DNA of 32,000 nucleotides from contig PBAU01000010.1 of assembly GCA_002716355.1 (NCBI GenBank), positions 91,645-123,644 of the forward strand, in the 5' to 3' direction. The notes under the pieces were generated by a model. The model was not told the DNA's origin and made no database searches. It saw nothing but the letters and a program-made list of their open reading frames with translations. Positions 3,350 through 31,513 of the stretch are shown here, in pieces. Both the position numbers and the translations under genes were made by a program. The stretch's first letter is position 1, and every line of letters starts with the position of its first letter. The stretch is from a bacterium. Its GTDB lineage: Bacteria > UBP7 > UBA6624.

Positions 3350-3958
3350 TTAGCAGTTTTTGCACCTCTCCTCTACAGCATTCCAGTCAACAACATTCCA
3401 CCAAGCACCTATGTATCCGCCCCTTAGGTTTTGATAGTTAAGATAATATGCATGTTCCCAGACGTCTAAACCCAATATGGGAGTTCCCTCTCCAGTCATC
3501 AATGGATTCTCTTGGTTTGCTGTTGAGGTTATTGAAAGTTTTCCATCTTTGCAGACAAGCCAAGCCCAGCCTGAACCAAATCTTGTCATGGCTGCATTTG
3601 CAAACTCTTCTTTAAACTTGTCAAAAGACCCGAAGGAAGAATCAATCAAATCAGCTAGATTTCCTGAAGGAGACCCTCCTCCATTAGGAGACATGATGGA
3701 CCAAAATAAAGAATGGTTGTAATGTCCTCCTCCATGGTTTCTTACAGCAGTTTTAACTGAATCAGGAAGATTGTTAACCATTTGACAAAGATTGCCCAAT
3801 CCTGCGTTTGCAAGATTTGGCTCTTTCTCCAAAGCAGCATTCAGGCCGTTTACATATGCCTGATGGTGTTTTGTGTGGTGTATCTCCATTGTTTTAGCAT
3901 CTATATGAGGCTCTAAAGCATCATATGAATAATTTAATTCTGGTAAAGAATGACTCAT
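3350..3958 (-). CDS. sod: Fe/Mn-family superoxide dismutase
   Basis: 202 aa. Motifs seen: [26 protein letters not shown] and [13 protein letters not shown], which carry the metal ligands. GGAGGA RBS upstream of the ATG. I cannot decide Fe versus Mn specificity by eye. Confidence 0.95.
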
Positions 3959-3976
3959 TTTTTTCCTCCGTTTTCC

Positions 3977-6574
3977 TTAAAGATCCAAAGCTCTTCTTAT
4001 TTCATAAGCGATATTTGTCATGTGGGCAGCAACCATTGGGTCACTATCTTCAGACATGTTGGTAGCACTTTCGTACATATCGATTAAAGCATCTGTAGAC
4101 AATGCAAGCATGTCAGGACCGCTATTTCCCATCTGAATCAAATAACTTGTCCACAAAGATTGGGAATCTCTATTGAAAGAATTAGCAGCATCAACATTCC
4201 ATAAAGCTTCATGAACCGCTGCAAACACATCACTGATAGAAAGAGAATCTCCTCCATTTGCTTCGTGATACCAGGCTGCATCTCTCATCCTCACTAACCT
4301 AGAACTGTCAAAAAGATACATCAAAGTCATCATCTTTCTGGAAGCAACAGTACTGTGAATGTCAGTATTGAGATCCTGCATAAAACTCCTGCCACCTAAA
4401 CCATAAGCCCTAAATGAATTAACCATATATGGGTAAAAGTCAACAAGCATAGCAGTATCAACTGTCAATGATTCAATAAGAAGATCCAAAGCTCTTTCTT
4501 GCTCTGAGTAAGAAATAAAAGATATTGGTGCAGGAGCACCAGGGTCACCCTTGTGCGCTCTGCTCATATCATGACCACCAAGATATTTTGCAGCAAAAGG
4601 GCCACCTCTTGACATGTCATAAAGAATTTGGCTTACACCGCCTCTTAAGTCAGTCCATTCTTCACCTTCTGAAACAACCCTATCCTCAATTTCGGAAATC
4701 AAACTCTTAGCAAGTTTAATCCTGTCCTCGAAGAATGAAAGTGGATCTGATAAGTCCCAATAATTTGTATAAGGGTCCCATCCAAATGCTGTTGCTGAAT
4801 CCTGATCAGTTGCAAAATGATGGTGGGGGTGAGTATTATCAGAAGCTAATTCCTTTAGCCATTCATGCTGAACACCACTTATCTCGTCTGGCAAATATTT
4901 ATAACCATACTGAACTGCCCAATCATCATAATCTCCAGTAACTGGTGAAGAATAATGTCCTTGGTTGTCTCTATCAGAAGAAACATTTGATTCTGCGTAA
5001 TCCATAACTGAAGAAATAAGTCCATGTTTGGAAGTGTATTCTTTATTGTTTATTTCTTCCCAAGGAATGCCATGACTAGATTTGAAATTATGCCTTAGGC
5101 CTATAGTGTGCCCTACTTCATGCATCGTAACCTCAATTAATGCTTCAGTAATAAAACTATGAGGGATCGGGTCATCAGCACCGATAACTCCATCAGCAAT
5201 CAAAGCGTTTCTCAAAACAATTGGTGAAAAGTTACCTCCTGAAACCGGACTTAACATAGCGCAATACCTTTCCATATCAAAACCTTCAGGAAGATCTCCA
5301 TAACCATATAAGCTCGCCTCAAATTCTTTAAACTTTCCTTCTTTCCCAATTTCTAATATTTCCTCATAATGAGGCAAATTAAATAAAGGGTGAGCTGTAA
5401 CTTCAGCGTCACCTGTCCAAGCTTTTATCCATGAAGCTGTGAAAACAATATCAGCATTGAGTATCTCTCCTGTTCTTGGATCAACATTTGAAGGACCAAT
5501 CGCAAATGTGCTTGCCAAACTAGGAGCCCACGAAACGCTTGAATACCTCGAATCTCCAGCAGAATAATCATCTGGCCAATCTTCATCTCCAGGAAGAACT
5601 GCTTTAACAGCTCCCTTCCATCCAGCAGCCTCAAAAGACTTATTCCATTTCTCAATACCTATTTTGACATACTCTCTCCAATCTTCAGAAACTGTTGGAT
5701 CAACATAATATGTAATTGGTTTGATTGGCTCAAGCATTTCAGCATCAGGATCTTTTGGTTCAAGTCTCCATTTGTTTGCAAGCCTCACCACACCACCATC
5801 AGTCTGCTCTGGATTTACATCCATGTCGTAATACTGAGTATCAAAATAACCTATTCTTTGGTCTGAAGTTCTTGTTGTCATAAGGTCATCAGGAAGCCTC
5901 TGCACTGAAAAATGTACACCTTCCTCGCTACTCCCCATATTGAAAATAATATCAAATTCCATATTGGTTGGATAAACATCTGATCTGTTGACATAGCTTA
6001 AATCCCTATTGAATCCGCGCATGTAACCCAAACCACTATTAATCCAATCACTAACATCTAAAAGATAATGGGTTGTTTCTCCATCTTTTTCCCTCGTTGC
6101 AACAGGCATCATAGCCATCATCCTTGTACCATCAGAAACACCAAGTGCATTTGCATTTGCTAATTTTCCTTCAGGATCCCACCTGTGACTCCAGTTAGGT
6201 TCAACAATGTCTATCCTTCTTCCATCAGGATTCATTCTGAATTCAAAAGACATATCCCCACTCGGCATATGCAAAAGGGAGCGTTGTGCATCAGCATGTG
6301 ATGTAAGCATTATCGCAACCATAGGATGATTAAGCTCAGAAGCTGGAACTTCAAGCATGAATTGACCTCTTCTATCATCGCTTCCAACATAAAGATTCAG
6401 CCAACCTTCTCTCTTCTCTAGACCTTTAGCAGCCTGATCAATAGGGTCAACTGGAGCTTTCTCAACAACTGGTGGCTTTGGTGTAACCCAGCTTCCAGTT
6501 TTCCAATCCCAAACAGGTGCCGCCTCTAAAGAAAAGGCTTTAAATAAAATAGTAATTAAAAAAATATTTCTCAT
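3977..6574 (-). CDS. Secreted zinc metalloprotease (Met-zincin type, large multi-domain)
   Basis: 865 aa. N-terminal signal peptide MRNIFLITILFKAFSLEA. Zincin motif TMHEVGHTIGLRHNF (HExxHxxGxxH). AGGAGG RBS upstream of the ATG. Confidence 0.85.
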   Translation of the reverse strand: MRNIFLITILFKAFSLEAAPVWDWKTGSWVTPKPPVVEKAPVDPIDQAAKGLEKREGWLNLYVGSDDRRGQFMLEVPASELNHPMVAIMLTSHADAQRSLLHMPSGDMSFEFRMNPDGRRIDIVEPNWSHRWDPEGKLANANALGVSDGTRMMAMMPVATREKDGETTHYLLDVSDWINSGLGYMRGFNRDLSYVNRSDVYPTNMEFDIIFNMGSSEEGVHFSVQRLPDDLMTTRTSDQRIGYFDTQYYDMDVNPEQTDGGVVRLANKWRLEPKDPDAEMLEPIKPITYYVDPTVSEDWREYVKIGIEKWNKSFEAAGWKGAVKAVLPGDEDWPDDYSAGDSRYSSVSWAPSLASTFAIGPSNVDPRTGEILNADIVFTASWIKAWTGDAEVTAHPLFNLPHYEEILEIGKEGKFKEFEASLYGYGDLPEGFDMERYCAMLSPVSGGNFSPIVLRNALIADGVIGADDPIPHSFITEALIEVTMHEVGHTIGLRHNFKSSHGIPWEEINNKEYTSKHGLISSVMDYAESNVSSDRDNQGHYSSPVTGDYDDWAVQYGYKYLPDEISGVQHEWLKELASDNTHPHHHFATDQDSATAFGWDPYTNYWDLSDPLSFFEDRIKLAKSLISEIEDRVVSEGEEWTDLRGGVSQILYDMSRGGPFAAKYLGGHDMSRAHKGDPGAPAPISFISYSEQERALDLLIESLTVDTAMLVDFYPYMVNSFRAYGLGGRSFMQDLNTDIHSTVASRKMMTLMYLFDSSRLVRMRDAAWYHEANGGDSLSISDVFAAVHEALWNVDAANSFNRDSQSLWTSYLIQMGNSGPDMLALSTDALIDMYESATNMSEDSDPMVAAHMTNIAYEIRRALDL

Positions 6575-22588: not shown

Positions 22589-22662
22589 TGGGAGATGGTG
22601 GACTTGAACCACCGACCTCTTGAATGTCAATCAAGCGCTCTATCCAGCTGAGCTAATCCCCC
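22589..22662 (-). tRNA. tRNA-Val (anticodon GAC), CCA not encoded
   Basis: I folded a cloverleaf by hand: acceptor GGGGGAT/ATCTCCC, anticodon arm CTTGA-TTGACAT-TCAAG, T-arm GGTGG-TTCAAGT-CCACC, A73. Confidence 0.9.
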
Positions 22663-22684
22663 TTTTTTTATTATTCTCAAAATA

Positions 22685-22758
22685 AGGGCGCGGTCGGATT
22701 CGAACCGACGAATATAGGCTTTGCAGGCCCACGCCTTAAACCACTTGGCCACGCGCCC
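22685..22758 (-). tRNA. tRNA-Cys (anticodon GCA), CCA not encoded
   Basis: Acceptor GGGCGCG/CGCGCCC with U73, the Cys identity discriminator. Anticodon arm TGGGC-CTGCAAA-GCCTA and T-arm GTCGG-TTCGAAT-CCGAC. Confidence 0.9.
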
Positions 22759-22765
22759 AAGAAAA

Positions 22766-22838
22766 AGCGGAAGACGGGACTTGAACCCGCGACCTCCAGC
22801 TTGGGAAGCTGATGCTCTACCAACTGAGCTACTTCCGC
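22766..22838 (-). tRNA. tRNA-Gly (anticodon CCC), CCA not encoded
   Basis: Acceptor GCGGAAG/CTTCCGC, U73, anticodon arm TCAGC-TTCCCAA-GCTGG, T-arm GCGGG-TTCAAGT-CCCGT. Confidence 0.9.
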
Positions 22839-22871: not shown

Positions 22872-24293
22872 TTATTTGATTTTATTCCAAGTTGTACCTG
22901 ATGAAGAATCTTTGATTTGAATACCTAAACCTAACAATTCGTCTCTTATGCAGTCAGCTTTTTTCCAATCCTTATCATCTCTCGCTTTGTTTCTTTCTTC
23001 TATCATTTCTTTAATCTTTTGATTATCTGAGCTATCCTGTTTGACAAAAATCCCCAAAACTTCATTAACTTCAGAAAGAAAAGACTTTGCACTCACTGCA
23101 ATATCATCAAGTCCTTTTTTTCTTGAGTCTTTTACAAGATCCATAACAACAGCAATAGCCTGAGGAACATCTAGATCTTTTTGCATAAAATCTACAAAAG
23201 AATCTTTATACTTTTGCACAAAATCATGATTATGAGAATTTGCTTCTTTGACATCATCTAAATCTTGAACGAAATTATGAAGCCTTTTTAAAGCTGATCG
23301 AGAATCCTTCAAGAGTTCAAAGCTAAAATTTAATGGTTGCCTGTAATGACCTCTTATAAGTGAATATCTTAACTCGGAGCCGTTAAAACCCCTGTTGTAA
23401 ATATCACTTGGAGTATAAGCATTGCCCAAACTTTTTCCCATCTTGCCACCATCTACCAATAAAAACCTACAATGCATCCAATGCCCTGCAAGCTTTTTAC
23501 CAGAAAACGCTTCACTTTGAGCTATTTCGCATTCGTGATGAGGAAAAACTAAATCCTCTCCTCCAGAGTGAATGTCTAACTTATCACCAAAAAGCGAATT
23601 CACCATTGCAGAACATTCAATGTGCCACCCTGGAAATCCATCACATCCTAATTCTGTATCCCATTTCATAAGATGTTTTGGATCAGTTTTCCAAAGAGCA
23701 AAATCTCTAGCATCTCTTTTCTCAGAATTGATATCAATCCTGTGGCCTAAGTCAAGCTTTTCGATTAAGTTCTTTGATAAATTTCCATATTTTTTAAATG
23801 ATTTAACTGAAAAATAGATATTGCCATTAGATTCATATGCATAACCTTTGTCAACAAGTTCACGAATCATCGAAACCATATCGTCAATATGCTTTGTTGC
23901 TTTAGACATATGTGTAGGCTTTTTCATATTCAAAGAATCCATATCACTAAAAAACTGTTTTTCATATCGTGCAACGATATCCCATGGAGAAAGGCCTTTT
24001 TCTTTTGCTTTTTCTTGTATCGGATCAATCTTAAGTGATGAATCATCACTTTCTCTCATGTGTCCAACATCAGTAATATTCATAGCTTGAAAAACTTTCC
24101 AGCCACCCCACTCCAAAGTCCTCCTTAAAACATCCGAAAAAAGAAAAGATCTCCAATTCCCAATGGTAGGACAACTATACAAAGTTGGCCCACAATGATA
24201 CATTCTCACAACACCTTCTTCATGAGTTTTCAAGGGAAAGAGATCAGCTCTTAAGGTATCAAAAAAAATTGGCTTTAGCCAGGGTTTATTCAA
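22872..24293 (-). CDS. cysS: Cysteinyl-tRNA synthetase
   Basis: 473 aa. Motifs seen: MYHCGPTLY, NITDVGH, GWHIECSAM, HSGGEDLVFPHHECEIAQSEA (zinc and cysteine site) and KMGKS (KMSKS motif). The TTG start overlaps the upstream TGA, and no in-frame ATG precedes the conserved N-terminus. Confidence 0.93.
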   Translation of the reverse strand: MNKPWLKPIFFDTLRADLFPLKTHEEGVVRMYHCGPTLYSCPTIGNWRSFLFSDVLRRTLEWGGWKVFQAMNITDVGHMRESDDSSLKIDPIQEKAKEKGLSPWDIVARYEKQFFSDMDSLNMKKPTHMSKATKHIDDMVSMIRELVDKGYAYESNGNIYFSVKSFKKYGNLSKNLIEKLDLGHRIDINSEKRDARDFALWKTDPKHLMKWDTELGCDGFPGWHIECSAMVNSLFGDKLDIHSGGEDLVFPHHECEIAQSEAFSGKKLAGHWMHCRFLLVDGGKMGKSLGNAYTPSDIYNRGFNGSELRYSLIRGHYRQPLNFSFELLKDSRSALKRLHNFVQDLDDVKEANSHNHDFVQKYKDSFVDFMQKDLDVPQAIAVVMDLVKDSRKKGLDDIAVSAKSFLSEVNEVLGIFVKQDSSDNQKIKEMIEERNKARDDKDWKKADCIRDELLGLGIQIKDSSSGTTWNKIK

Positions 24294-25045
24294 TTAGTTA
24301 TCCATCTCCCACAATTTGAACAAACACAAATACAACCTTTTTCTTCAAGCTCCTCTAAACATAACGAAGGTAGTGCAGAGTTACACGCAACACATATAAA
24401 AACAATATTGTCTTCAAAATCTTTATCTTTTCTTGCCTCGGTTAAAACTAAGCCTTTTGATCTTTTTGCCAAATCTATAAATCTAGCAACAACTTTTTCA
24501 TCTAAATCTGAACAAGAGTCTTCAATCTCTTTGCTGATGCTTTTGATATTTTCATCCTTTTGATTAACTATGTCATTAAACTCTTTTTCTCTATTTGCTA
24601 CAGCTTCCTCGATATTTGCTAACCTTTCCCTGTTGTCTCTAATGGATTTTTCAAGATTTTCGATCTGTATGGACCTTCCAGCAAAATCTTTTTCCTTGTC
24701 GTCTTTCTCTTCTCGCTTTTGAATTAAGGACTCAGCAAGTTCCTGAGCGACCCTATGCGAGATATCTTCAGAGCTCATACTTTCAAGCCTTTCAATATCC
24801 TGAACTATCATTTGCAATTCAGATTCAGCTTCAATTAATTCTTTTTTAACCCTGTTGTAAACTTCCTCTCTTCTTTTCAATCTTTGCTCTTCATCCCTTG
24901 CAGATCTTCTCCTCTGGGCTAATCTAAACTCAACAGCTTTATGCTGTTTCTCTTCCTCTAATGATTGAATTTCTAAAGTTTTCTCTTGGATGCTTTTCAA
25001 AGCCTCCAGCTCTTTTTCCTTTAAAACAAAATCTAAACTAAACAT
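24290..25045 (-). CDS. Coiled-coil protein with C-terminal C4 zinc ribbon (COG1579-like)
   Basis: About 251 aa, mostly heptad-like E/K/R-rich helix, ending in CVACNSALP...CSNCGRWI. I moved the start from the track's TTG (25051) to ATG 25045, because the TAAGGAG RBS sits 8 nt upstream of that ATG. Confidence 0.75.
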   Translation of the reverse strand: MFSLDFVLKEKELEALKSIQEKTLEIQSLEEEKQHKAVEFRLAQRRRSARDEEQRLKRREEVYNRVKKELIEAESELQMIVQDIERLESMSSEDISHRVAQELAESLIQKREEKDDKEKDFAGRSIQIENLEKSIRDNRERLANIEEAVANREKEFNDIVNQKDENIKSISKEIEDSCSDLDEKVVARFIDLAKRSKGLVLTEARKDKDFEDNIVFICVACNSALPSLCLEELEEKGCICVCSNCGRWITN

Positions 25046-25063
25046 AAACAATACTCCTTATTA

Positions 25064-25140
25064 TGGTGGGGAGAGAGGGACTTGAACCCCCGACCTCCTG
25101 TTTGTAAGACAGGCGCTCTATCCAGCTGAGCTATCCCCCC
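25064..25140 (-). tRNA. tRNA-Val (anticodon TAC), 3' CCA encoded
   Basis: Acceptor GGGGGGA/TCTCCCC, A73 followed by CCA, anticodon arm CCTGT-CTTACAA-ACAGG, T-arm GGGGG-TTCAAGT-CCCTC. Confidence 0.9.
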
Positions 25141-25153
25141 CCACTTCTCAGCA

Positions 25154-25226
<73 letters not shown>

Positions 25227-25295
25227 ACGATTTGAGTATCCTATCATAATCGAGATTTAATGTGATACACTAAACTTATTGGGTGGTTTTAACCC

Positions 25296-25442
25296 ATTGG
25301 GTTATACCTTAAAAAGGGAAAATTGTGAGAATCAATTACGGCCCCCGCCACCGTAACTGGCACAAAAAAATATTGCCACTGTTTTGAAGAATGGGAAGGC
25401 AAGATTGTTTCAAACGCCAGTAGTCGGGAGACCTGCCTAAGC
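25296..25442 (+). ncRNA. Cobalamin (B12) riboswitch; boundaries approximate
   Basis: Conserved blocks appear in the correct order: AAAAAGGGAAaattGTGAGAATCaattACGGCCCCCGCCACCGTAA, then GCCACTG...GGGAAGGC, then the B12 box AGTAGTCGGGAGACCTGCC (25419-25437). The GGGAGG RBS of the next gene begins about 15 nt after the box. Confidence 0.85.
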
Positions 25443-25463
25443 TTAAAAATTACGGGAGGTAAT

Positions 25464-26600
25464 ATGATGAAAAAATTTATCAAAGCAAAAATATTATTAA
25501 TTATTCTTATTTTCTGCTCATGTTCGGGACAAACACCTGAAAATTCCAATAGAGCAAACCTTGTTCTTTTAACAAACGACTGGAGTCTAAATGAAACTAA
25601 CTTTTCTATAAACACAGAAAAAGGAGACTGGCTTGAAAGTTCTGAATATCTTGATATAAATGATACCTTTAGCGCTGATACCGTAGCTAGATCCTTCAAG
25701 GAGAATGAAGCTTGGTTTCTGGACAGGCATAATCATTCAGTTTCAAAAATCAGATTTTCAAAAAATGGCTCCCCCCAGATGGTTTCAAAATGGACATTAG
25801 AAGATAGTCCAAATCCACATGATGTATGGCTTCATAATCAAATTCTTTACATAACACAATATGAAAATGAATCTCTAATTATGCTTGACGAAGAAAACGG
25901 TCAAAAAATAACTGAAATCAACCTCTCAAATGGAGAATTGAGCAGTTGTGCTCAAAATGATGGAAAATCAGAAATGGATCAGATATTCATGAAAAATAAT
26001 AAAATTTACATTTCTATGCAATGTCTTGACACAACAGGTTCCTGGAATCCAGTTACTGAAGGAAAGCTAGCAGTCTTAGACACAAATACAAATTCAATAT
26101 CAGAAATAATAACGTTAAATGACTGCTTCAATCCAGTTGATGCTTCAGAAGGACCTTCTGGTAATTATTTATATTTTTCTTGCGTCAACAATTATGAAGG
26201 TGGAAATGATGGCTCGATAATAAAAATGAATTACGCTAACCACTCCATTCAAAAAATTGCTGATGAATCGTTATTCGGAGGAGACATTGGAGGAATAACA
26301 ATAAAAAATGATGAAAATATATTTGTAACTGTTACCGCTCCGGATTGGAGTCACACATGGGTTTCGAAAGTAAATATAAATGAAAACCAAGCAGAAACAA
26401 TACATCAAAAAAATACACCTTGGCATAACAGGATAGCTTTCAAGAACGAGACCTTGTGGCTTATAGGCAATGAAGGGCTTTACTCTATTTCTGATTGTGG
26501 TTTGTTTTGCACAGATGAACAATTGATAAAATCTTCATCAAAATCAGCTCAACTACTATTTTGGCTTGGAGATCCGATGTTCGGTGGTGGTGGGCATTAA
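25464..26600 (+). CDS. Riboswitch-controlled hypothetical lipoprotein, probably a beta-rich/propeller-like fold
   Basis: 378 aa. GGGAGG RBS. Signal peptide MMKKFIKAKILLIILIFCSCSG ends in Cys. Recurrent strand-like segments such as ILYITQYENESLIMLDEENGQKITEINL, KIYISMQC, KLAVLDTNTNSISEIITL and LYFSCVNN. Gly-rich C-terminus GDPMFGGGGH. Confidence 0.7.
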   Translation: MMKKFIKAKILLIILIFCSCSGQTPENSNRANLVLLTNDWSLNETNFSINTEKGDWLESSEYLDINDTFSADTVARSFKENEAWFLDRHNHSVSKIRFSKNGSPQMVSKWTLEDSPNPHDVWLHNQILYITQYENESLIMLDEENGQKITEINLSNGELSSCAQNDGKSEMDQIFMKNNKIYISMQCLDTTGSWNPVTEGKLAVLDTNTNSISEIITLNDCFNPVDASEGPSGNYLYFSCVNNYEGGNDGSIIKMNYANHSIQKIADESLFGGDIGGITIKNDENIFVTVTAPDWSHTWVSKVNINENQAETIHQKNTPWHNRIAFKNETLWLIGNEGLYSISDCGLFCTDEQLIKSSSKSAQLLFWLGDPMFGGGGH

Positions 26601-27561
26601 AAAGCTGATACATGCTTTATATGTTTTAATATTACTAATTCCCACCTCCTGCAAAGAAGCAGGTCAAGAACAAATTCAAAAATCTGAGATAAAGGAATGG
26701 AAAATAATATCTTTAGCACCATCAACAACAAGCATGCTTGCAGAGCTTGGCTTGTCTGAACACATTGTTGCAGTAGATTCATTTTCAAAAAAAGGTTCAA
26801 GTTTTTTAGACATTGGTGGACTCATTGATCCGAACTATGAATTAATAACAACAATCAAACCAACGCATATCATTGGCTTGAATAGCCATTCAAAAATCAA
26901 AGAGAAGCTGCATTTCATGAATTCGAAATGGATGTTAAATCCATCAGAAAGCCTTAATGATTATTTTCAAACAATCCAAGAAATAGGTAAAGAATTCAAT
27001 AAAGACCTTGAAGCAGAAAAACATTTGATGGAGATAGAAGAACTTGTAAAATCCTTAAGGGAGCTGATATCCCTAAATACAAATTGCGAATTGCTAAAAT
27101 TTGAATATTGCCAAAATGAAAAAAAAATAATGATGATTATTTCAAGAAAACCTGGTGAAATAACAAACATGTTGGCAGCTGGAAAAGGAACTTTCCTTTC
27201 TGAAATTATTGAAAAACTAGGTGTAAAAAACGCAATAAAGAATCAAGAAAGGGCATTGAATCCTTATTGGCCAAATATAGGTGCTGAAAGCTTAATTGCA
27301 ATAAACCCGGATGAAATATGGGAATTTGGAGAAAAGAGCGATGATCAAAATTTATGTTGCGATATTGATAGTTTTTTTTACCCTTACCTTAAGCTAGAAA
27401 ACATCACAGCTGTAAAAAATAAAAAAATAAAACTATTCCAGGATACCGACTTAACCGTTCCGGGAACAAATATAAAAAAAACATTGATTCGATTTGCAAT
27501 AGAGCTCTATCCTGAAATAAAAGATAATATAAAAATACTAATCAAGCCAGCGAGAAGCTGA
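26566..27561 (+). CDS. BtuF-like periplasmic binding protein (class III / Peripla_BP_2 type), probable lipoprotein
   Basis: 331 aa as tracked. The real start may be one of the GTG codons at 26584-26592, which would give VVVGIKKLIHALYVLILLIPTSC. Motif KIISLAPSTTSMLAELGLSEHIVAVDSFS...LITTIKPTHIIGL is typical of cobalamin/siderophore binding proteins. It overlaps or abuts the upstream ORF. Confidence 0.7.
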   Translation: MEIRCSVVVGIKKLIHALYVLILLIPTSCKEAGQEQIQKSEIKEWKIISLAPSTTSMLAELGLSEHIVAVDSFSKKGSSFLDIGGLIDPNYELITTIKPTHIIGLNSHSKIKEKLHFMNSKWMLNPSESLNDYFQTIQEIGKEFNKDLEAEKHLMEIEELVKSLRELISLNTNCELLKFEYCQNEKKIMMIISRKPGEITNMLAAGKGTFLSEIIEKLGVKNAIKNQERALNPYWPNIGAESLIAINPDEIWEFGEKSDDQNLCCDIDSFFYPYLKLENITAVKNKKIKLFQDTDLTVPGTNIKKTLIRFAIELYPEIKDNIKILIKPARS

Positions 27562-28890
27562 CCATAATTCAAGTGAATTATCACCTTTGTAACAAAGAAA
27601 ATCGCTACCATTAAAAGCTAACATAAGTGTTGAGCGTGACGCTAAATTTTGATCTTTTTTACCAATTACCTTCAAGCCAAAATGACCTGCTGCTAAGTAA
27701 TTTTGGCCTATGTCCAATAAGGAAAGTACGGAACTCTTCAAATTAATCTTTTTAAAGTTTTTATCTTCAAAATAAACACTTCCATCAACAGTCGAAAATG
27801 CTGAACCTGAAAAACTTAAACCTGCACAGCTCAAATCTTTTTTCTTTTTAGGCATGAAGCTGTTGTTTTTTTCGTAAAGCGTAAATAAGCTTCCATAAAG
27901 ATCAACAAGGTGAATGTTTTTCTCTCCATAAAAAACAATACTGATACCATTTTTTTCCTCAAAAACTACAGTGGGTTTATCATTTTCTACAAGGACTAAG
28001 GAACCTTCCAGAGAGCCTATTAGAAGCTTGTTGTTTTCAAGATCTGCACAAATAGGCTTTATGTTCAATTTAAAATCTGAAATAAGATTCAGGCCCTTGT
28101 CCCATTTTGAAACGAAGCCGTCTGAAGATACTGCAAATAAAAAATTCTTGTTTGAAACAAGTGCGATTATTTTTTTCTTGTGAAAATCTAAAATTCTTGA
28201 TTCGCTTATCTCTTTTTCATGAATGTTTAAAACAGCAATATCACCATTAACCTTTCCCGTAATCCAAAATCCTGAAAAATACGCTACTGCAGTCAAGCCA
28301 GAAAAATCAGAAAAAGCCCTGGGTGATTCACCAACCTCTACGAGGGCGTCATTTACCCATTCTCCATTTAAGTTTTCAGAAACGGCTTGATTGCATAATG
28401 CAATGGTTTTTAAATATTTTTTTTCGCTTAATGCATTTTTAATATCTCTTTTATAGAGTTTCTTTTTTTCTCTTTTTTCGCTTAAAGCCAGGTCTTCTAG
28501 ATGTTGTTTTGCTGATGCGTTGGAACCATCAACAGACAGAATTTCAAGAGCTATCTCTTTTGCCTTTGCAGGCTTAGAGCGCTTTAGCTTATTCATGTTT
28601 TCCAATAATTTTTCTATTTTTTCTTTTTTTAACTTCGTTAAAATTTCTTGGGCCCATTGTATGGATGGAGCCTTTTTAAGAACCTTTAGGACATGGTCAT
28701 AGCAGTCATCCCAACTACCATTTTCCAAAAGTTCCTCACATTTTTCTTTTTGCTCATCTGCCCACATTGCCTTATCTACAGATTCCCTACCACCTTCAAT
28801 AAGCCAAGAACCACAAAAACGACACTTGTAAGCACCTTGCATAATCATCTCTCCACAGTAAGGACAAGGTATTCTTTTTTCGTTACTCAT
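27538..28890 (-). CDS. Zinc-ribbon / helical / degenerate WD40-like beta-propeller protein (cytoplasmic, uncharacterised)
   Basis: 450 aa. N-terminus CPYCGEMIMQGAYKCRFCGSW is a C4 zinc ribbon, followed by a K/E-rich helical region. The remaining ~260 aa carry repeated motifs (SSDGFVSKWD, SLEGSLVLVEN, LYGSLFTLYE, TVDGSVYFED). The ATG overlaps the upstream gene stop by 8 nt. Confidence 0.7.
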   Translation of the reverse strand: MSNEKRIPCPYCGEMIMQGAYKCRFCGSWLIEGGRESVDKAMWADEQKEKCEELLENGSWDDCYDHVLKVLKKAPSIQWAQEILTKLKKEKIEKLLENMNKLKRSKPAKAKEIALEILSVDGSNASAKQHLEDLALSEKREKKKLYKRDIKNALSEKKYLKTIALCNQAVSENLNGEWVNDALVEVGESPRAFSDFSGLTAVAYFSGFWITGKVNGDIAVLNIHEKEISESRILDFHKKKIIALVSNKNFLFAVSSDGFVSKWDKGLNLISDFKLNIKPICADLENNKLLIGSLEGSLVLVENDKPTVVFEEKNGISIVFYGEKNIHLVDLYGSLFTLYEKNNSFMPKKKKDLSCAGLSFSGSAFSTVDGSVYFEDKNFKKINLKSSVLSLLDIGQNYLAAGHFGLKVIGKKDQNLASRSTLMLAFNGSDFLCYKGDNSLELWSASRWLD

Positions 28891-31513
28891 TTCTCTCTTC
28901 CATGTTTAAAAAAACCAAATTTTCCTCTGAAACAACAACGAGCATTTCAATATCTAAATAATTCAAAAAGCCTAATGTCCAAATCTTGCCCAAAGAAGGA
29001 TCCCAATTTATCTCAGATAACTGATTGCCATCTGAATCAAAAACAAACACCTTGTCAGTAAATTCAGTTGCAAAAGCAAAGCTACCACTATCATTCACCA
29101 CAACACTTCCAAGCTTGATAGATTTTGGATCTTTTAACATTTTTTTTGCTTTCGGAAAATCCTGAGATGCGTTCCCTATCCACACCTGACCATTTTGATC
29201 AAATGCAAAAATAGTTCCAGAATCATTAAGAAGGACATCTGTAACTGGTTGATTTATTGTCAAATTTCCTACAGCAGATAAACCCATAAGCTCTCCTTTC
29301 ATTACACTGTAAAGGGAAACAATGGAGTTGTTGGGTCCAAAATTATAACCAATAGCAATATGTTCATTATTGTTAACGCTTAACTTGATCTGTCTTGACT
29401 CAAGCCCATCCCAAACAAACTTACTAGAGCCATAGCCCATAACAACCTGGAGGGATCTTGTTTCACTCTCGTGAAAAACACCGAAACCATTATCTGCAAG
29501 ATCAAAAGCATCAAAATACCTTTTGCTTGAAATGATCTTTCTCTTTTCCGATCCGGCCTGAGAGTCCACCCACGCCCCTTTTGAAGAAGCCCAAAAAACT
29601 TCACTTTCAAAATGAACTTTTTGCACTAGTGAGTCGTCAACATCACCATCACCATTCTCTAAATTTGAAAATCTGAATGGTGAAGAAGATAATATACGAT
29701 ATCCACCCCTTACACCTAGCAACAATTCAATATTTTTAAAATCTTCAGATTGTGAAAGCGAATAAACCTGTTCCGGCAAGTTGAAAACATACACGGGAAG
29801 ATTGTCAATTTTAGAAAGTTCATAAAGTTGTGCAAAAATCAAAGCTTCATCTTCTTTCTCTAATAGCAACAAAGGGAAGGCTTTTTCTGAAAAATACCGT
29901 ACCTCTTCAGCAGTTGAGTTTTTTAAAAAATAATCTAAATTATCCTTAAACAAGCTTCCAAATGGTATTTTTTGAGATAGCTCAAACATAACTTCTGCTT
30001 CAAGAAGCCAATCCGGCTTCTCTATCCTAAGCCCACTTAAAAGCAAGGATAACTCTTTTAAAAAATCATCATCATAATCAAGATAAGGGTTGATGTGCAT
30101 GTCTATTTTTGTTGACTCTTTTATTTCGGACAATCTCATTTCGTAAGATTTTTTCAGAAGTAAAGATACCCACGCCAAATCTGGTTTCAAAGGTATTTTT
30201 TTCAACTCTGATATCGATTCTTTGAAATTTCCTGAATCAAATAAAGATTGAATTTTTATCTTTAAAGAAACAAAAGCGTCTTGCTCATAGCTTGCAAGCA
30301 GGTTTGAAACATCTGCACTTTCTGGCCATTCTTGACTTAAATCATTCAACAAGGATGAAGCTCTAACCCAATTTTCCTCTTCTATATAAGACCTTGCTTC
30401 CCTTATTTTGCTTTTTGGCGGAATGCTTGGGTCTTTCAGCAAAAGTGAAGATATCAAGAAAATAACCGCTATCGCACAAATTTGAAAGTATCTATTTTTT
30501 AAAAACTTTTTCTCTTTGATTTGGCTTATGAAAGATACATCACCCCTTCCTTCATCCTTTTTTTCAACTAATAATTCAACTTTTTCTCTTTTTTCTTTTT
30601 TAGGCTTTTTGGCTATTTTGTTTGATTTTGGCTTTTTGCCCCAGCCTAAAACTGTGCCATTTGAAAGCGTTCCAAGCAAAGCAGCACCATCTAAAGACCA
30701 TTCGAAAGAGGTTACTCCTTCGCTTTTTGAAATATTTGACAAATATTTTTTTCTTTTGTTCCAATCTAACAAAATTGCATTTTCATACTTTCTTCCAACG
30801 GCCAAAAGTGAATGTTTTGGAGAAAAAGATAACGATGTTACAGGAGCTTCACAATCAAAATTTTTCAAAAGTGTCCAATCCCCATTTTTCCATATAGAAA
30901 CAGAACCATCATCCGATCCTGTAGCTATTAAAAATCCACCGGAGTGAACAGCTAGAGATGAAATACTATCCCTATGTGCAGGTATTTCTGAAATCAAATT
31001 ACCTCTTATGTCTAAAACATGAAAACTAGGCCTTTCCCCAACTACCAAAAGAGAAGAATCTGGCAACTTTTCCAAACCATGCACACTTCCTATATCTATT
31101 TGCTTTTCCCAAATAGCCTCGCCATCTAAGCCCCAACATCTAACCCTGCCATCCTGGCCTCCAGAAACCAAAAAATTAGAAAAAACAGATAAAGAATAAA
31201 CAAAACCTTTAAAACCGGCTATCTTGCTTAACGTTTCCCCGGTTTCAACATCAACACGCAAAATAGAACCATTGCCTCCAACAAAAAGAGAGCCATCTTC
31301 ATGGAAGAACAAAGACAAAACCATACCTCCAAAACCCCTTATGACTTTCTTTCTAGATCCTGTTGAATAATCCCATATCAAAACACGATCGTCTAAACCA
31401 CCTGTGGCATAAATTTTTCCATTTGGATGAGCTGCAACACAAGCAGCTTCTGCTAGATGTTCTACCAGTTTAAAAGACTTCATAACTCTTACTGGCTCAA
31501 ATACAAGAACCAT
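28883..31513 (-). CDS. Membrane-spanning protein: N-terminal WD40 propeller, Lys-rich linker, single TM helix, helical region, C-terminal propeller-like domain
   Basis: 876 aa. WD-like blades are visible (GGLDDRVLIWD, GGQDGRVRCWG, GSDDGSVSIWK, SNGTVLGWG). The linker is KKPKSNKIAKKPKKEKREK and the TM helix is YFQICAIAVIFLISSLLL. The C-terminal part has DQNGQVWIGN and FDSDGNQLSEINWD. The start could instead be M11. Confidence 0.75.
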   Translation of the reverse strand: MVLVFEPVRVMKSFKLVEHLAEAACVAAHPNGKIYATGGLDDRVLIWDYSTGSRKKVIRGFGGMVLSLFFHEDGSLFVGGNGSILRVDVETGETLSKIAGFKGFVYSLSVFSNFLVSGGQDGRVRCWGLDGEAIWEKQIDIGSVHGLEKLPDSSLLVVGERPSFHVLDIRGNLISEIPAHRDSISSLAVHSGGFLIATGSDDGSVSIWKNGDWTLLKNFDCEAPVTSLSFSPKHSLLAVGRKYENAILLDWNKRKKYLSNISKSEGVTSFEWSLDGAALLGTLSNGTVLGWGKKPKSNKIAKKPKKEKREKVELLVEKKDEGRGDVSFISQIKEKKFLKNRYFQICAIAVIFLISSLLLKDPSIPPKSKIREARSYIEEENWVRASSLLNDLSQEWPESADVSNLLASYEQDAFVSLKIKIQSLFDSGNFKESISELKKIPLKPDLAWVSLLLKKSYEMRLSEIKESTKIDMHINPYLDYDDDFLKELSLLLSGLRIEKPDWLLEAEVMFELSQKIPFGSLFKDNLDYFLKNSTAEEVRYFSEKAFPLLLLEKEDEALIFAQLYELSKIDNLPVYVFNLPEQVYSLSQSEDFKNIELLLGVRGGYRILSSSPFRFSNLENGDGDVDDSLVQKVHFESEVFWASSKGAWVDSQAGSEKRKIISSKRYFDAFDLADNGFGVFHESETRSLQVVMGYGSSKFVWDGLESRQIKLSVNNNEHIAIGYNFGPNNSIVSLYSVMKGELMGLSAVGNLTINQPVTDVLLNDSGTIFAFDQNGQVWIGNASQDFPKAKKMLKDPKSIKLGSVVVNDSGSFAFATEFTDKVFVFDSDGNQLSEINWDPSLGKIWTLGFLNYLDIEMLVVVSEENLVFLNMEERNE

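Follow-up and report, generated by a model that had tools for sequence, protein, structure and literature searches.

Organization of the operon

We analyzed a 32,000-nucleotide (nt) stretch of bacterial DNA (GenBank assembly GCA_002716355.1, contig PBAU01000010.1, positions 91,645 to 123,644; the whole stretch is called the window, and all coordinates refer to it). Our analysis focuses on the gene at 25464..26600 on the forward strand, which runs from ATG to TAA in the list of open reading frames (ORFs) and encodes a propeller protein of 378 amino acids (aa). It heads an operon of two genes, since a convergent gene (27538..28890, reverse strand) closes the unit after the second one. We propose that the product is probably a corrinoid-binding, lipid-anchored propeller of the BtuG superfamily that feeds inner-membrane uptake. 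The features of the operon, all on the forward strand, are as follows.

25264..25454, forward strand: cobalamin riboswitch aptamer, the leader of the operon (Rfam RF00174)
25455..25460, forward strand: Shine-Dalgarno sequence GGGAGG, directly adjoining the aptamer on its 3' side, with 3 nt left to the ATG (read off the sequence)
25464..26600, forward strand: gene of the putative BtuG-like seven-bladed beta-propeller lipoprotein, 378 aa (ORF, homologues, AlphaFold, Foldseek, profile links)
25464..25523, forward strand: lipoprotein signal peptide, residues 1-20, with C20 as predicted lipidated cysteine (sequence features)
25560..26564, forward strand: propeller body, residues 33-367, 28 strands in 7 blades (AlphaFold secondary structure)
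26568..26597, forward strand: C-terminal tail GDPMFGGGGH-COOH, residues 369-378 (subfamily alignment)
26584..27561, forward strand: gene of a BtuF-type (Peripla_BP_2, class III) substrate-binding lipoprotein (Pfam PF01497; gene call of 325 aa)

The aptamer matches the full Rfam model (positions 1-189 of 189) with 86.2 bits against a gathering score of 31.5 (expectation value, E, 3.8e-20). Its 3' end lies 9 nt in front of the ATG, and the propeller gene is the first gene behind the riboswitch, as the first-pass annotation of this DNA had stated. The riboswitch is also found directly upstream of the propeller gene in all eight other subfamily loci whose sequence includes upstream DNA (5 of 5 in L001-L005 and 3 of 3 in L093-L095). 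The genes upstream of the riboswitch are tRNAs on the opposite strand. The riboswitch would repress the operon, probably at translation initiation, because the gap between aptamer and start codon leaves no space for a terminator. A thermodynamic fold of the leader can pair the Shine-Dalgarno sequence with the ACCUGCC of the aptamer, but there is no significant structure signal (z = -0.67). The fold is uninformative, and the presumed mechanism of control therefore follows from the spacing.

Gene callers place the start of the second gene at GTG 26584, which gives an overlap of 17 nt with the propeller gene and agrees with the earlier remark that the propeller gene overlaps or abuts the start region of its neighbor; the longest possible ORF of the second gene begins at TTG 26566. 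The remainder of the 32-kilobase (kb) window is made up of housekeeping genes, and neither a TonB-dependent receptor nor btuCD was found there.

Two minor observations concern the leader region. The tRNA cluster at 25067-25226 (reverse strand, two genes) is divergent from the promoter region of the riboswitch, and the aptamer starts only about 37 nt from the tRNA end. An ORF of 136 aa at 25289..25699 (reverse strand) lies antisense to the riboswitch and the signal-peptide region; we set it aside as most likely spurious.

Signal peptide, cysteines and fold

The N-terminus, MMKKFIKAKILLIILIFCSCSG, has the features of a lipoprotein-type signal, i.e. a basic n-region, a hydrophobic core and a cysteine, C20, that is invariant across the subfamily; such a signal had been noticed in the first-pass annotation. 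The residues preceding C20 are F-C-S in the window protein and the canonical L-A-A in relatives of high guanine-plus-cytosine (GC) content, and residues 3-17 are helical in the AlphaFold model. Lipidation at C20 is therefore a prediction from these sequence features. The lipoprotein export signal of Bacteroidota is absent after C20: the window protein continues with S-G-Q-T-P-E-N and its relatives with G-S or S-P. In BtuG2, the corresponding signal for surface exposure is MKWD (PMC6143338). This signal is peculiar to Bacteroidota, and its absence in another lineage is a poor guide to the location of the protein.

Beyond C20, four cysteines are invariant across the subfamily, namely C162, C187, C221 and C240 (DNA positions 25947-25949, 26022-26024, 26124-26126 and 26181-26183). 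They probably form disulfides, and their presence would fit an extracytoplasmic protein. A further pair, C345 and C349 in the motif DCGLFC, is confined to the low-GC clade.

A first AlphaFold model, built from 6 close sequences, was mediocre, with a mean predicted local distance difference test (pLDDT) score of 64, and Foldseek returned a mixture of BtuG, XusB, YncE and others at template modeling (TM) scores of about 0.5. A second model (me61e7c843fff), built from 12 more diverse sequences, reaches a pLDDT of 77.5 and a predicted TM score (pTM) of 0.81. Its body is all-beta and comprises 28 strands arranged in seven four-stranded blades, which confirms the strand-rich propeller proposed earlier. 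In the model, the closing blade is formed by the C-terminal strand (361-367), which joins the N-terminal strands (33-59); the register of the blades was deduced from the repeat motif and the mapping of BtuG2 contacts. When the second model is compared with the Protein Data Bank (PDB) by Foldseek, the 13 best matches are all BtuG2, BtuG3 or 3DSM, with target-normalized TM scores of 0.63-0.69. XusB and BtuG1 follow, and Sec12, AztD and YncE rank lower. The comparison with BtuG suggested in the first-pass annotation thus came out in favor of BtuG.

Homology to BtuG through an intermediate family

Scans of the propeller protein against Pfam and NCBIfam matched no model; DUF4221 (E 0.069) and L-NosZ (E 0.074) came out far below their cut-offs. 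A narrow profile (A1) searched against the PDB sequences retrieved only hydrazine synthase, at E 0.28. A link to BtuG becomes visible through a family of distant hits, which we call the intermediate family (A3, 41 sequences). In hhalign comparisons, the subfamily profile of the window protein (A5) aligns with A3 at a probability of 100% (E 8.8e-58, 347 columns), and A3 aligns with BtuG2 plus P0179 at 98.3% (E 1.3e-14, 324 columns). A WD40 propeller of the same window, used as a control, reaches only 2-3% against A5 and A3. P0179 itself carries Pfam DUF5074 and, with 1e-110 to 8BMY, is a genuine homologue of BtuG2.

The mixed alignment of 61 sequences (A2) leads to the same family. Searched against all PDB sequences, its nine top matches are BtuG (E 3e-9 to 6e-8), followed by Drp35 at E 5e-6; in hhalign, A2 and BtuG align with a probability of 98.8% (global mode) or 98.2% (local mode). 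Pfam DUF5074 is reached by 7 of the 61 A2 sequences. According to the profile chain, the window protein is a very distant homologue of BtuG, linked through the intermediate family by evidence that is transitive but strong. The first-pass annotation had envisaged an analogous but possibly unrelated solution; this part is contradicted by the two links of the chain (E 9e-58 and 1e-14, rounded). The search with profile models proposed there gave no Pfam or NCBIfam match and, on the other hand, the connection to BtuG. Direct membership in BtuG looks different. Similarity to BtuG1-3 was delimited by BlastP at E < 1e-10 (Wexler 2018), and the window protein has neither a DUF5074 match nor a significant hhalign score to BtuG.

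The intermediate family and the distribution of BtuG-type systems

A metagenome scan with 10 closer sequences as query yielded 80 loci of the intermediate family (L013-L092; representatives P0031 and P0036). A TonB-dependent receptor gene precedes the propeller gene on the same strand in at least 54 of them, at a distance of up to about 65 nt (mostly 10-30 nt); most of the remaining loci are without upstream sequence. Wherever both a complete receptor and its upstream flank were available, a cobalamin riboswitch precedes the receptor in 16 out of 18 cases. In L078, for example, the riboswitch (1402-1592) is followed by the receptor and then by the propeller gene (3914-5200). Other recurring neighbors, judged by eye, are FecCD permease-like, BtuF-like binding and CobS-like proteins.

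The GC content of these loci has a median of 0.605 and rises to 0.73, and most of them are therefore unlikely to belong to Bacteroidota. BtuG has been described as exclusive to Bacteroidetes, based on BlastP searches of gut genomes (PMC6143338), and its distribution was reviewed only within gut Bacteroidota (PMC13616437). The sequences at hand look like an undescribed wide distribution of BtuB-BtuG-type systems.

Among the systems compared, the intermediate family is closest by sequence to the subfamily of the window protein. Both consist of lipoproteins, both are under riboswitch control, and both contain the motifs S-D-x-x-x-R, N-P-H/Q-D, Q-[RC]-L-D, N-P and G-G-D. However, identity is only about 20%, and the proteins of the intermediate family, some of which reach Pfam DUF5074, end directly after the last strand (...GLPP....), i.e. 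without a tail. The partners differ as well: a receptor in at least 54 of the 80 intermediate loci, and BtuF, BtuFDC or DUF6580 in the subfamily.

The putative corrinoid pocket

In BtuG2, B12 sits in a central cavity; its upper ligand faces the interior of the protein, and hydrogen bonds are made to the corrin amides. The cavity is narrowed by Trp194, Trp272 and Tyr316 (PMC10404256). The contacts listed for BtuG2 are E55, G56, F58, Q93, N107, S131, R135, W149, S195, Q219 and W272 (bioRxiv 10.1101/2024.02.16.580637). For the comparison, residues 39-366 of BtuG2 were rebuilt from the printed alignment. The resulting numbering reproduces E55, G56, F58, Q93, N107, S131, W149, W194, S195 and Q219; the rebuilt arginine is R133, which we take as the "R135" of the preprint, two positions earlier. 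The mapping given below is an alignment of two hidden Markov models (HMMs), not a structural superposition, and conservation was counted in A2.

BtuG2 N107: R88 in the window protein, conserved in 54 of 61 sequences
BtuG2 S131: N117, conserved in 59 of 61
BtuG2 R133: H119, with H in 24 of 61 and Q in a further 20
BtuG2 W194: Q186, conserved in 54 of 61
BtuG2 S195: C187, where R prevails (36 of 61) and C occurs in 3
BtuG2 Q219: N223, in 61 of 61, the only invariant column
BtuG2 W272: D274, in 34 of 61
BtuG2 Y316: N322, variable in A2, within the WHNR motif (320-323) that is invariant in the subfamily

In this alignment, the contact positions of BtuG2 fall on the most conserved polar columns (R88, N117, Q186 and N223). 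The same face of the propeller thus appears to be conserved and lined with amide and guanidinium side chains, which would suit corrin amides. The residue types differ from BtuG2, however, and smaller polar side chains take the place of its aromatic plug. The mapping supports a ligand pocket at the place known from BtuG2, although the same ligand or the same affinity is not proven thereby.

A rare subfamily without an adjoining receptor

A word-indexed search for the window protein found only five clusters, with 67-99% identity, all of them from marine metagenomes or metagenome-assembled genomes; with the 61-sequence alignment as query, the same type of search returned only 10 proteins. The propeller gene is carried by five species-representative genomes, and in all five the order is tRNA, riboswitch, propeller, binding protein, zinc-ribbon protein and WD40 protein. 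An exhaustive profile search of 1.84 billion representatives gave 3 matches below 1e-30, 45 below 1e-10 and 381 below 1e-3. One of the three strong matches, P0029 (33% identity, GC 73%), led to three further clusters. The subfamily is hence rare, with about 9 clusters, all from uncultured bacteria, and its loci span a GC content of 35-73%. The neighborhood of P0184 (GC 52%) is the same as in the window: gatB, gatA, rplT, rpmI, infC, thrS, cysS, a coiled-coil protein, the propeller, the zinc-ribbon protein and the WD40 protein. Because of this shared synteny, the subfamily is, as far as gene order tells, inherited within one uncultured lineage.

What escaped the first-pass annotation is that the subfamily never occurs beside btuB within the flanks covered (about 5-25 kb); its partner is a BtuF-like protein, BtuFDC or DUF6580. 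An HMM built from 25 receptors detects no TonB-dependent receptor in these flanks in any of the 13 subfamily sequences searched. In L095, the downstream partners are a substrate-binding protein, an ABC_tran ATPase and a FecCD permease, in this order. In two other loci (L093:11192-11749 and L094:1548-2117, both forward), a DUF6580 gene (Pfam E 1e-53) stands in place of the BtuF-like gene. Its product has about 185 aa with several hydrophobic segments and is encoded behind the same B12 riboswitch. We found no papers mentioning DUF6580, and NCBIfam gives it no name; the family has no relative in the PDB and hence no sequence link to any solved transporter. We consider the DUF6580 protein a candidate inner-membrane corrinoid transporter.

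In the window, the partner is a member of Pfam PF01497 (Peripla_BP_2; 47.3 bits against a cut-off of 27.5). The NCBIfam models IsdE, FhuD and BtuF all remain below their cut-offs; the BtuF equivalog, with its cut-off of 234, gives 25.8 bits, less than IsdE. The N-terminus is lipoprotein-like (...LLIPTSC in the window, the canonical LLLLAGC in L095), and a lipid-anchored BtuF is known from B. thetaiotaomicron (PMC13616437). It is the riboswitch that suggests B12 as the substrate of this binding protein.

The C-terminal tail

The first-pass annotation called attention to an unusual C-terminus, a glycine run followed by histidine. The sequence is indeed present (GDPMFGGGGH); it is not a quirk of one protein, but the most conserved segment of the subfamily. 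The pattern W-[LV]-G-D-P-x-F-G-G-G-G-H-COOH, in which x is M, Y or T, is invariant in eight out of eight representatives, down to an overall identity of 32%, whereas neither the intermediate family nor BtuG2 has it. Three features are new: the rare subfamily as such, its partners from inner-membrane uptake in place of a receptor (within flanks of about 5-25 kb), and the invariant WxGDPxFGGGGH-COOH tail.

Between loci of GC 35% and GC 73% the codons of the tail differ synonymously. Conservation as a by-product of the gene overlap can be rejected: in L003, L093 and L095 there is no overlap (the next gene begins 6-16 nt past the stop), and the peptide is identical while the codons differ. The tail also stays the same with either partner, BtuF-like protein or DUF6580, and therefore it probably serves the propeller itself rather than acting as a docking signal for a specific partner.

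AlphaFold confidence is low in the tail region. From the blade register, the contacts fall at the beginnings of the innermost strands and the ends of the second strands; on this register the last strand (361-367) would be the innermost of the closing blade and run away from the binding face, so that the tail would emerge at the bottom of the central channel. It is a matter of speculation that His378, on its tether of four glycines (Gly4), could extend to a bound corrinoid and approach it from the upper-ligand side.

Proposed role and alternative explanations

Four lines of evidence lead us to the reading of a corrinoid-binding propeller: the riboswitch in every locus, the partners known from B12 uptake, BtuG as the best fold match, and the conservation at the contact positions. 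The function suggested in the first-pass annotation is thus well supported. According to this model, the cobalamin riboswitch would repress a two-gene corrinoid-uptake operon, and the propeller and its BtuF-like partner would be made when B12 is scarce. The propeller would be exported and lipid-anchored at C20, and its ligand would be a corrinoid (B12 or cobinamide), held in the pocket known from BtuG2, on the face at which the loops leading into the innermost strands meet those leaving the second strands. Translational coupling would tie its synthesis to that of the BtuF-like lipoprotein; in relatives, the coupled partner would be BtuF-BtuD-BtuC or the DUF6580 membrane protein. Because the gene is coupled to these components and not to BtuB, the propeller may be a module for high-affinity capture or chaperoning of the corrinoid, which it would pass on to inner-membrane uptake. 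The data show the riboswitch, the structure of the operon, the fold, the homology through the intermediate family and the pattern of conservation; corrinoid binding, the compartment, transfer to the binding protein and what the tail does are all inferred at this stage.

Several observations weigh against this model. Direct hhalign comparisons of A1 with the BtuG2 homologue and of A5 with BtuG are not significant and equal the WD40 control, so that we claim no direct similarity to BtuG; the homology depends on the intermediate family. The Foldseek margin is modest, and XusB, a siderophore binder, scores about like BtuG1. The aromatic residues that close the pocket of BtuG2 (W194, W272 and Y316) are Q, D and N in the window protein, and therefore its affinity, and even the identity of its ligand, could differ. 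The binding protein is not specifically BtuF, and among solved structures its nearest relatives bind iron and heme. A btuB gene may lie elsewhere in the genome, as the flanks covered only about 5-25 kb. The placement at the inner membrane, finally, is tentative with regard to the phylum and envelope type of the host.

XusB (PDB: 9HQK, 9HQE) is the xenosiderophore-binding propeller lipoprotein of Bacteroides that sits on the TonB-dependent transporter XusA. It resembles the window protein in fold, lipoprotein architecture and Foldseek score (TM 0.57-0.65). However, it belongs to another Pfam family (DUF4374 hits are marginal only, P0180 and P0181), it binds a siderophore, and no B12 riboswitch controls it.

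The closest known system is BtuG itself (BT1954/BtuG2, BT2095/BtuG3, BT1490/BtuG1; PDB: 3DSM, 8BMY, 8BAI, 8OKV, 8PTD), a surface lipoprotein of B12 uptake in Bacteroides. Traits by which BtuG is defined include picomolar or tighter affinity for cobalamin and the binding of cobinamide as well. Like the window protein, it is a seven-bladed propeller lipoprotein, and it is the best fold match and a homologue via the intermediate family; it is also controlled by B12 riboswitches (PMC10404256), and in the HMM alignment its corrin contacts appear to fall on conserved polar residues of the window protein. On the other hand, the window gene is not located beside btuB, direct sequence signal and the export signal of Bacteroidota are missing, the invariant GDPxFGGGGH tail is extra, Q, D and N stand in place of W194, W272 and Y316, and the lineage is uncultured.

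The window protein could instead be a classical BtuG, i.e. a surface lid on a TonB-dependent BtuB encoded elsewhere, in which case the linkage to BtuF, BtuFDC or DUF6580 would merely reflect co-regulation of a split pathway. All characterized BtuG proteins, as well as at least 54 of the 80 intermediate-family members, are encoded beside such a receptor (PMC10404256), the btu genes of E. coli are likewise scattered (PMC13616437), and a receptor would have been noticed only within the inspected flanks. Nevertheless, we consider this explanation rather unlikely. The sister family nearly always has a receptor, while none accompanies any of the 13 subfamily sequences; the partner is always a component of inner-membrane uptake and appears translationally coupled; the subfamily-specific tail and the remodeled pocket floor point to a changed mode of action; and the lipoprotein export signal of Bacteroidota type (PMC6143338) does not follow the cysteine.

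Our preferred model of capture and hand-over to the inner membrane can be extended to a bolder version, which we put forward with considerable doubt. In this version, the protein would be a BtuB-independent, membrane-anchored corrinoid chaperone that loads inner-membrane importers directly (the BtuF lipoprotein or DUF6580), and His378 on its Gly4 tether would extend upward through the central channel and serve as a cobalt ligand on the side of the upper ligand, taking over from the aromatic plug of BtuG2 (W194, W272, Y316). If this were true, ligation by His378 would represent a new mode of corrinoid capture and DUF6580 a new family of corrinoid transporters.

In the AztD/AztC system (PDB: 6CMK, 6N01), AztD, a metallochaperone with a propeller fold, works in the periplasm and delivers zinc to AztC, a ZnuA-type binding protein belonging to an ABC importer. 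B12 riboswitches also control genes of cobalt uptake, as known from comparative genomics of B12 regulons. The window protein could also be a chaperone for cobalt or another metal, with the C-terminal and other invariant histidines passing free metal to the binding protein. The logic of the operon is alike, with a propeller encoded together with, and presumably feeding, a substrate-binding protein; AztD is among the fold matches (6n01, 6cmk), and H119, H314, H321 and H378 are invariant, the last as part of the Gly4-His tail. Yet the analogy is functional only, and we regard a metal chaperone as highly improbable: kinship to AztD is not detectable, with TM scores of 0.46-0.47 compared to 0.63-0.69 for BtuG, and sequence homology leads to BtuG instead. 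Moreover, the binding protein belongs to Peripla_BP_2, the siderophore, heme and B12 class, not to the metal binders of ZnuA/TroA type, and the conserved positions appear to coincide with the corrin-amide contacts of BtuG2.

Another corrinoid-related role (remodeling, decyanation or reduction before import), or no ligand function at all, is very unlikely too. In its favor, the pocket floor differs from that of BtuG2 (Q186, D274, N322, the invariant WHNR 320-323), invariant Cys and His are present, and enzymes are common among propellers with this kind of fold, two of which, Drp35 lactonase and the luciferin-regenerating enzyme, are among the matches. Against it, no catalytic family was matched in the Pfam, NCBIfam and PDB-sequence searches, the nearest relatives by both sequence and fold are binding proteins, and the operon holds uptake components only.

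Implications for corrinoid uptake

The results suggest that the picture of BtuG as a device of B12 piracy restricted to gut Bacteroidetes (PMC6143338) is too narrow. The BtuG fold may rather be part of a wider, ancient superfamily of riboswitch-controlled corrinoid-capture lipoproteins in marine, sediment and soil bacteria with GC contents of up to 73%. One branch of it seems to have been rewired from an outer-membrane transporter to parts of inner-membrane uptake and to have acquired the invariant Gly4-His tail. If binding holds true, the window protein would provide a second, sequence-divergent "super-binder" scaffold for corrinoids as well as a testable model of how B12 reaches BtuF-type proteins in this lineage, and DUF6580 would be a candidate for a new corrinoid transporter. 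In the ocean, B12 is a limiting, traded micronutrient, and therefore the capture devices of uncultured marine lineages bear on competition.

Neighboring genes

The two genes that follow the operon on the reverse strand, 27538-28890 and 28883-31513, overlap by 8 nt. The first encodes a protein of 450 aa whose N-terminal part is a zinc ribbon and which also has a coiled-coil region and, weakly, the signal of a propeller; the second encodes a WD40 protein of 876 aa with a Lys-rich stretch and a hydrophobic segment in its middle. This zinc-ribbon/WD40 pair adjoins the B12 operon in genomes of GC 35% to 73% (L003, L093 and L094). On the other side, a tRNA cluster of three genes (22589-22838, reverse strand) and the above-mentioned cluster of two flank cysS and a coiled-coil gene (24290-25051, reverse strand). 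The latter encodes 253 aa with a four-Cys zinc-ribbon-like motif at the end and without a Pfam hit; the gene overlaps the start of cysS by 4 nt, and its synteny is kept in L003 and L093. Another propeller-like family is represented by a protein of 259 aa with an SdiA-regulated domain (PF06977; 15541-16320, forward strand), which belongs to the conserved neighborhood and is found upstream in L006 and L093 as well.

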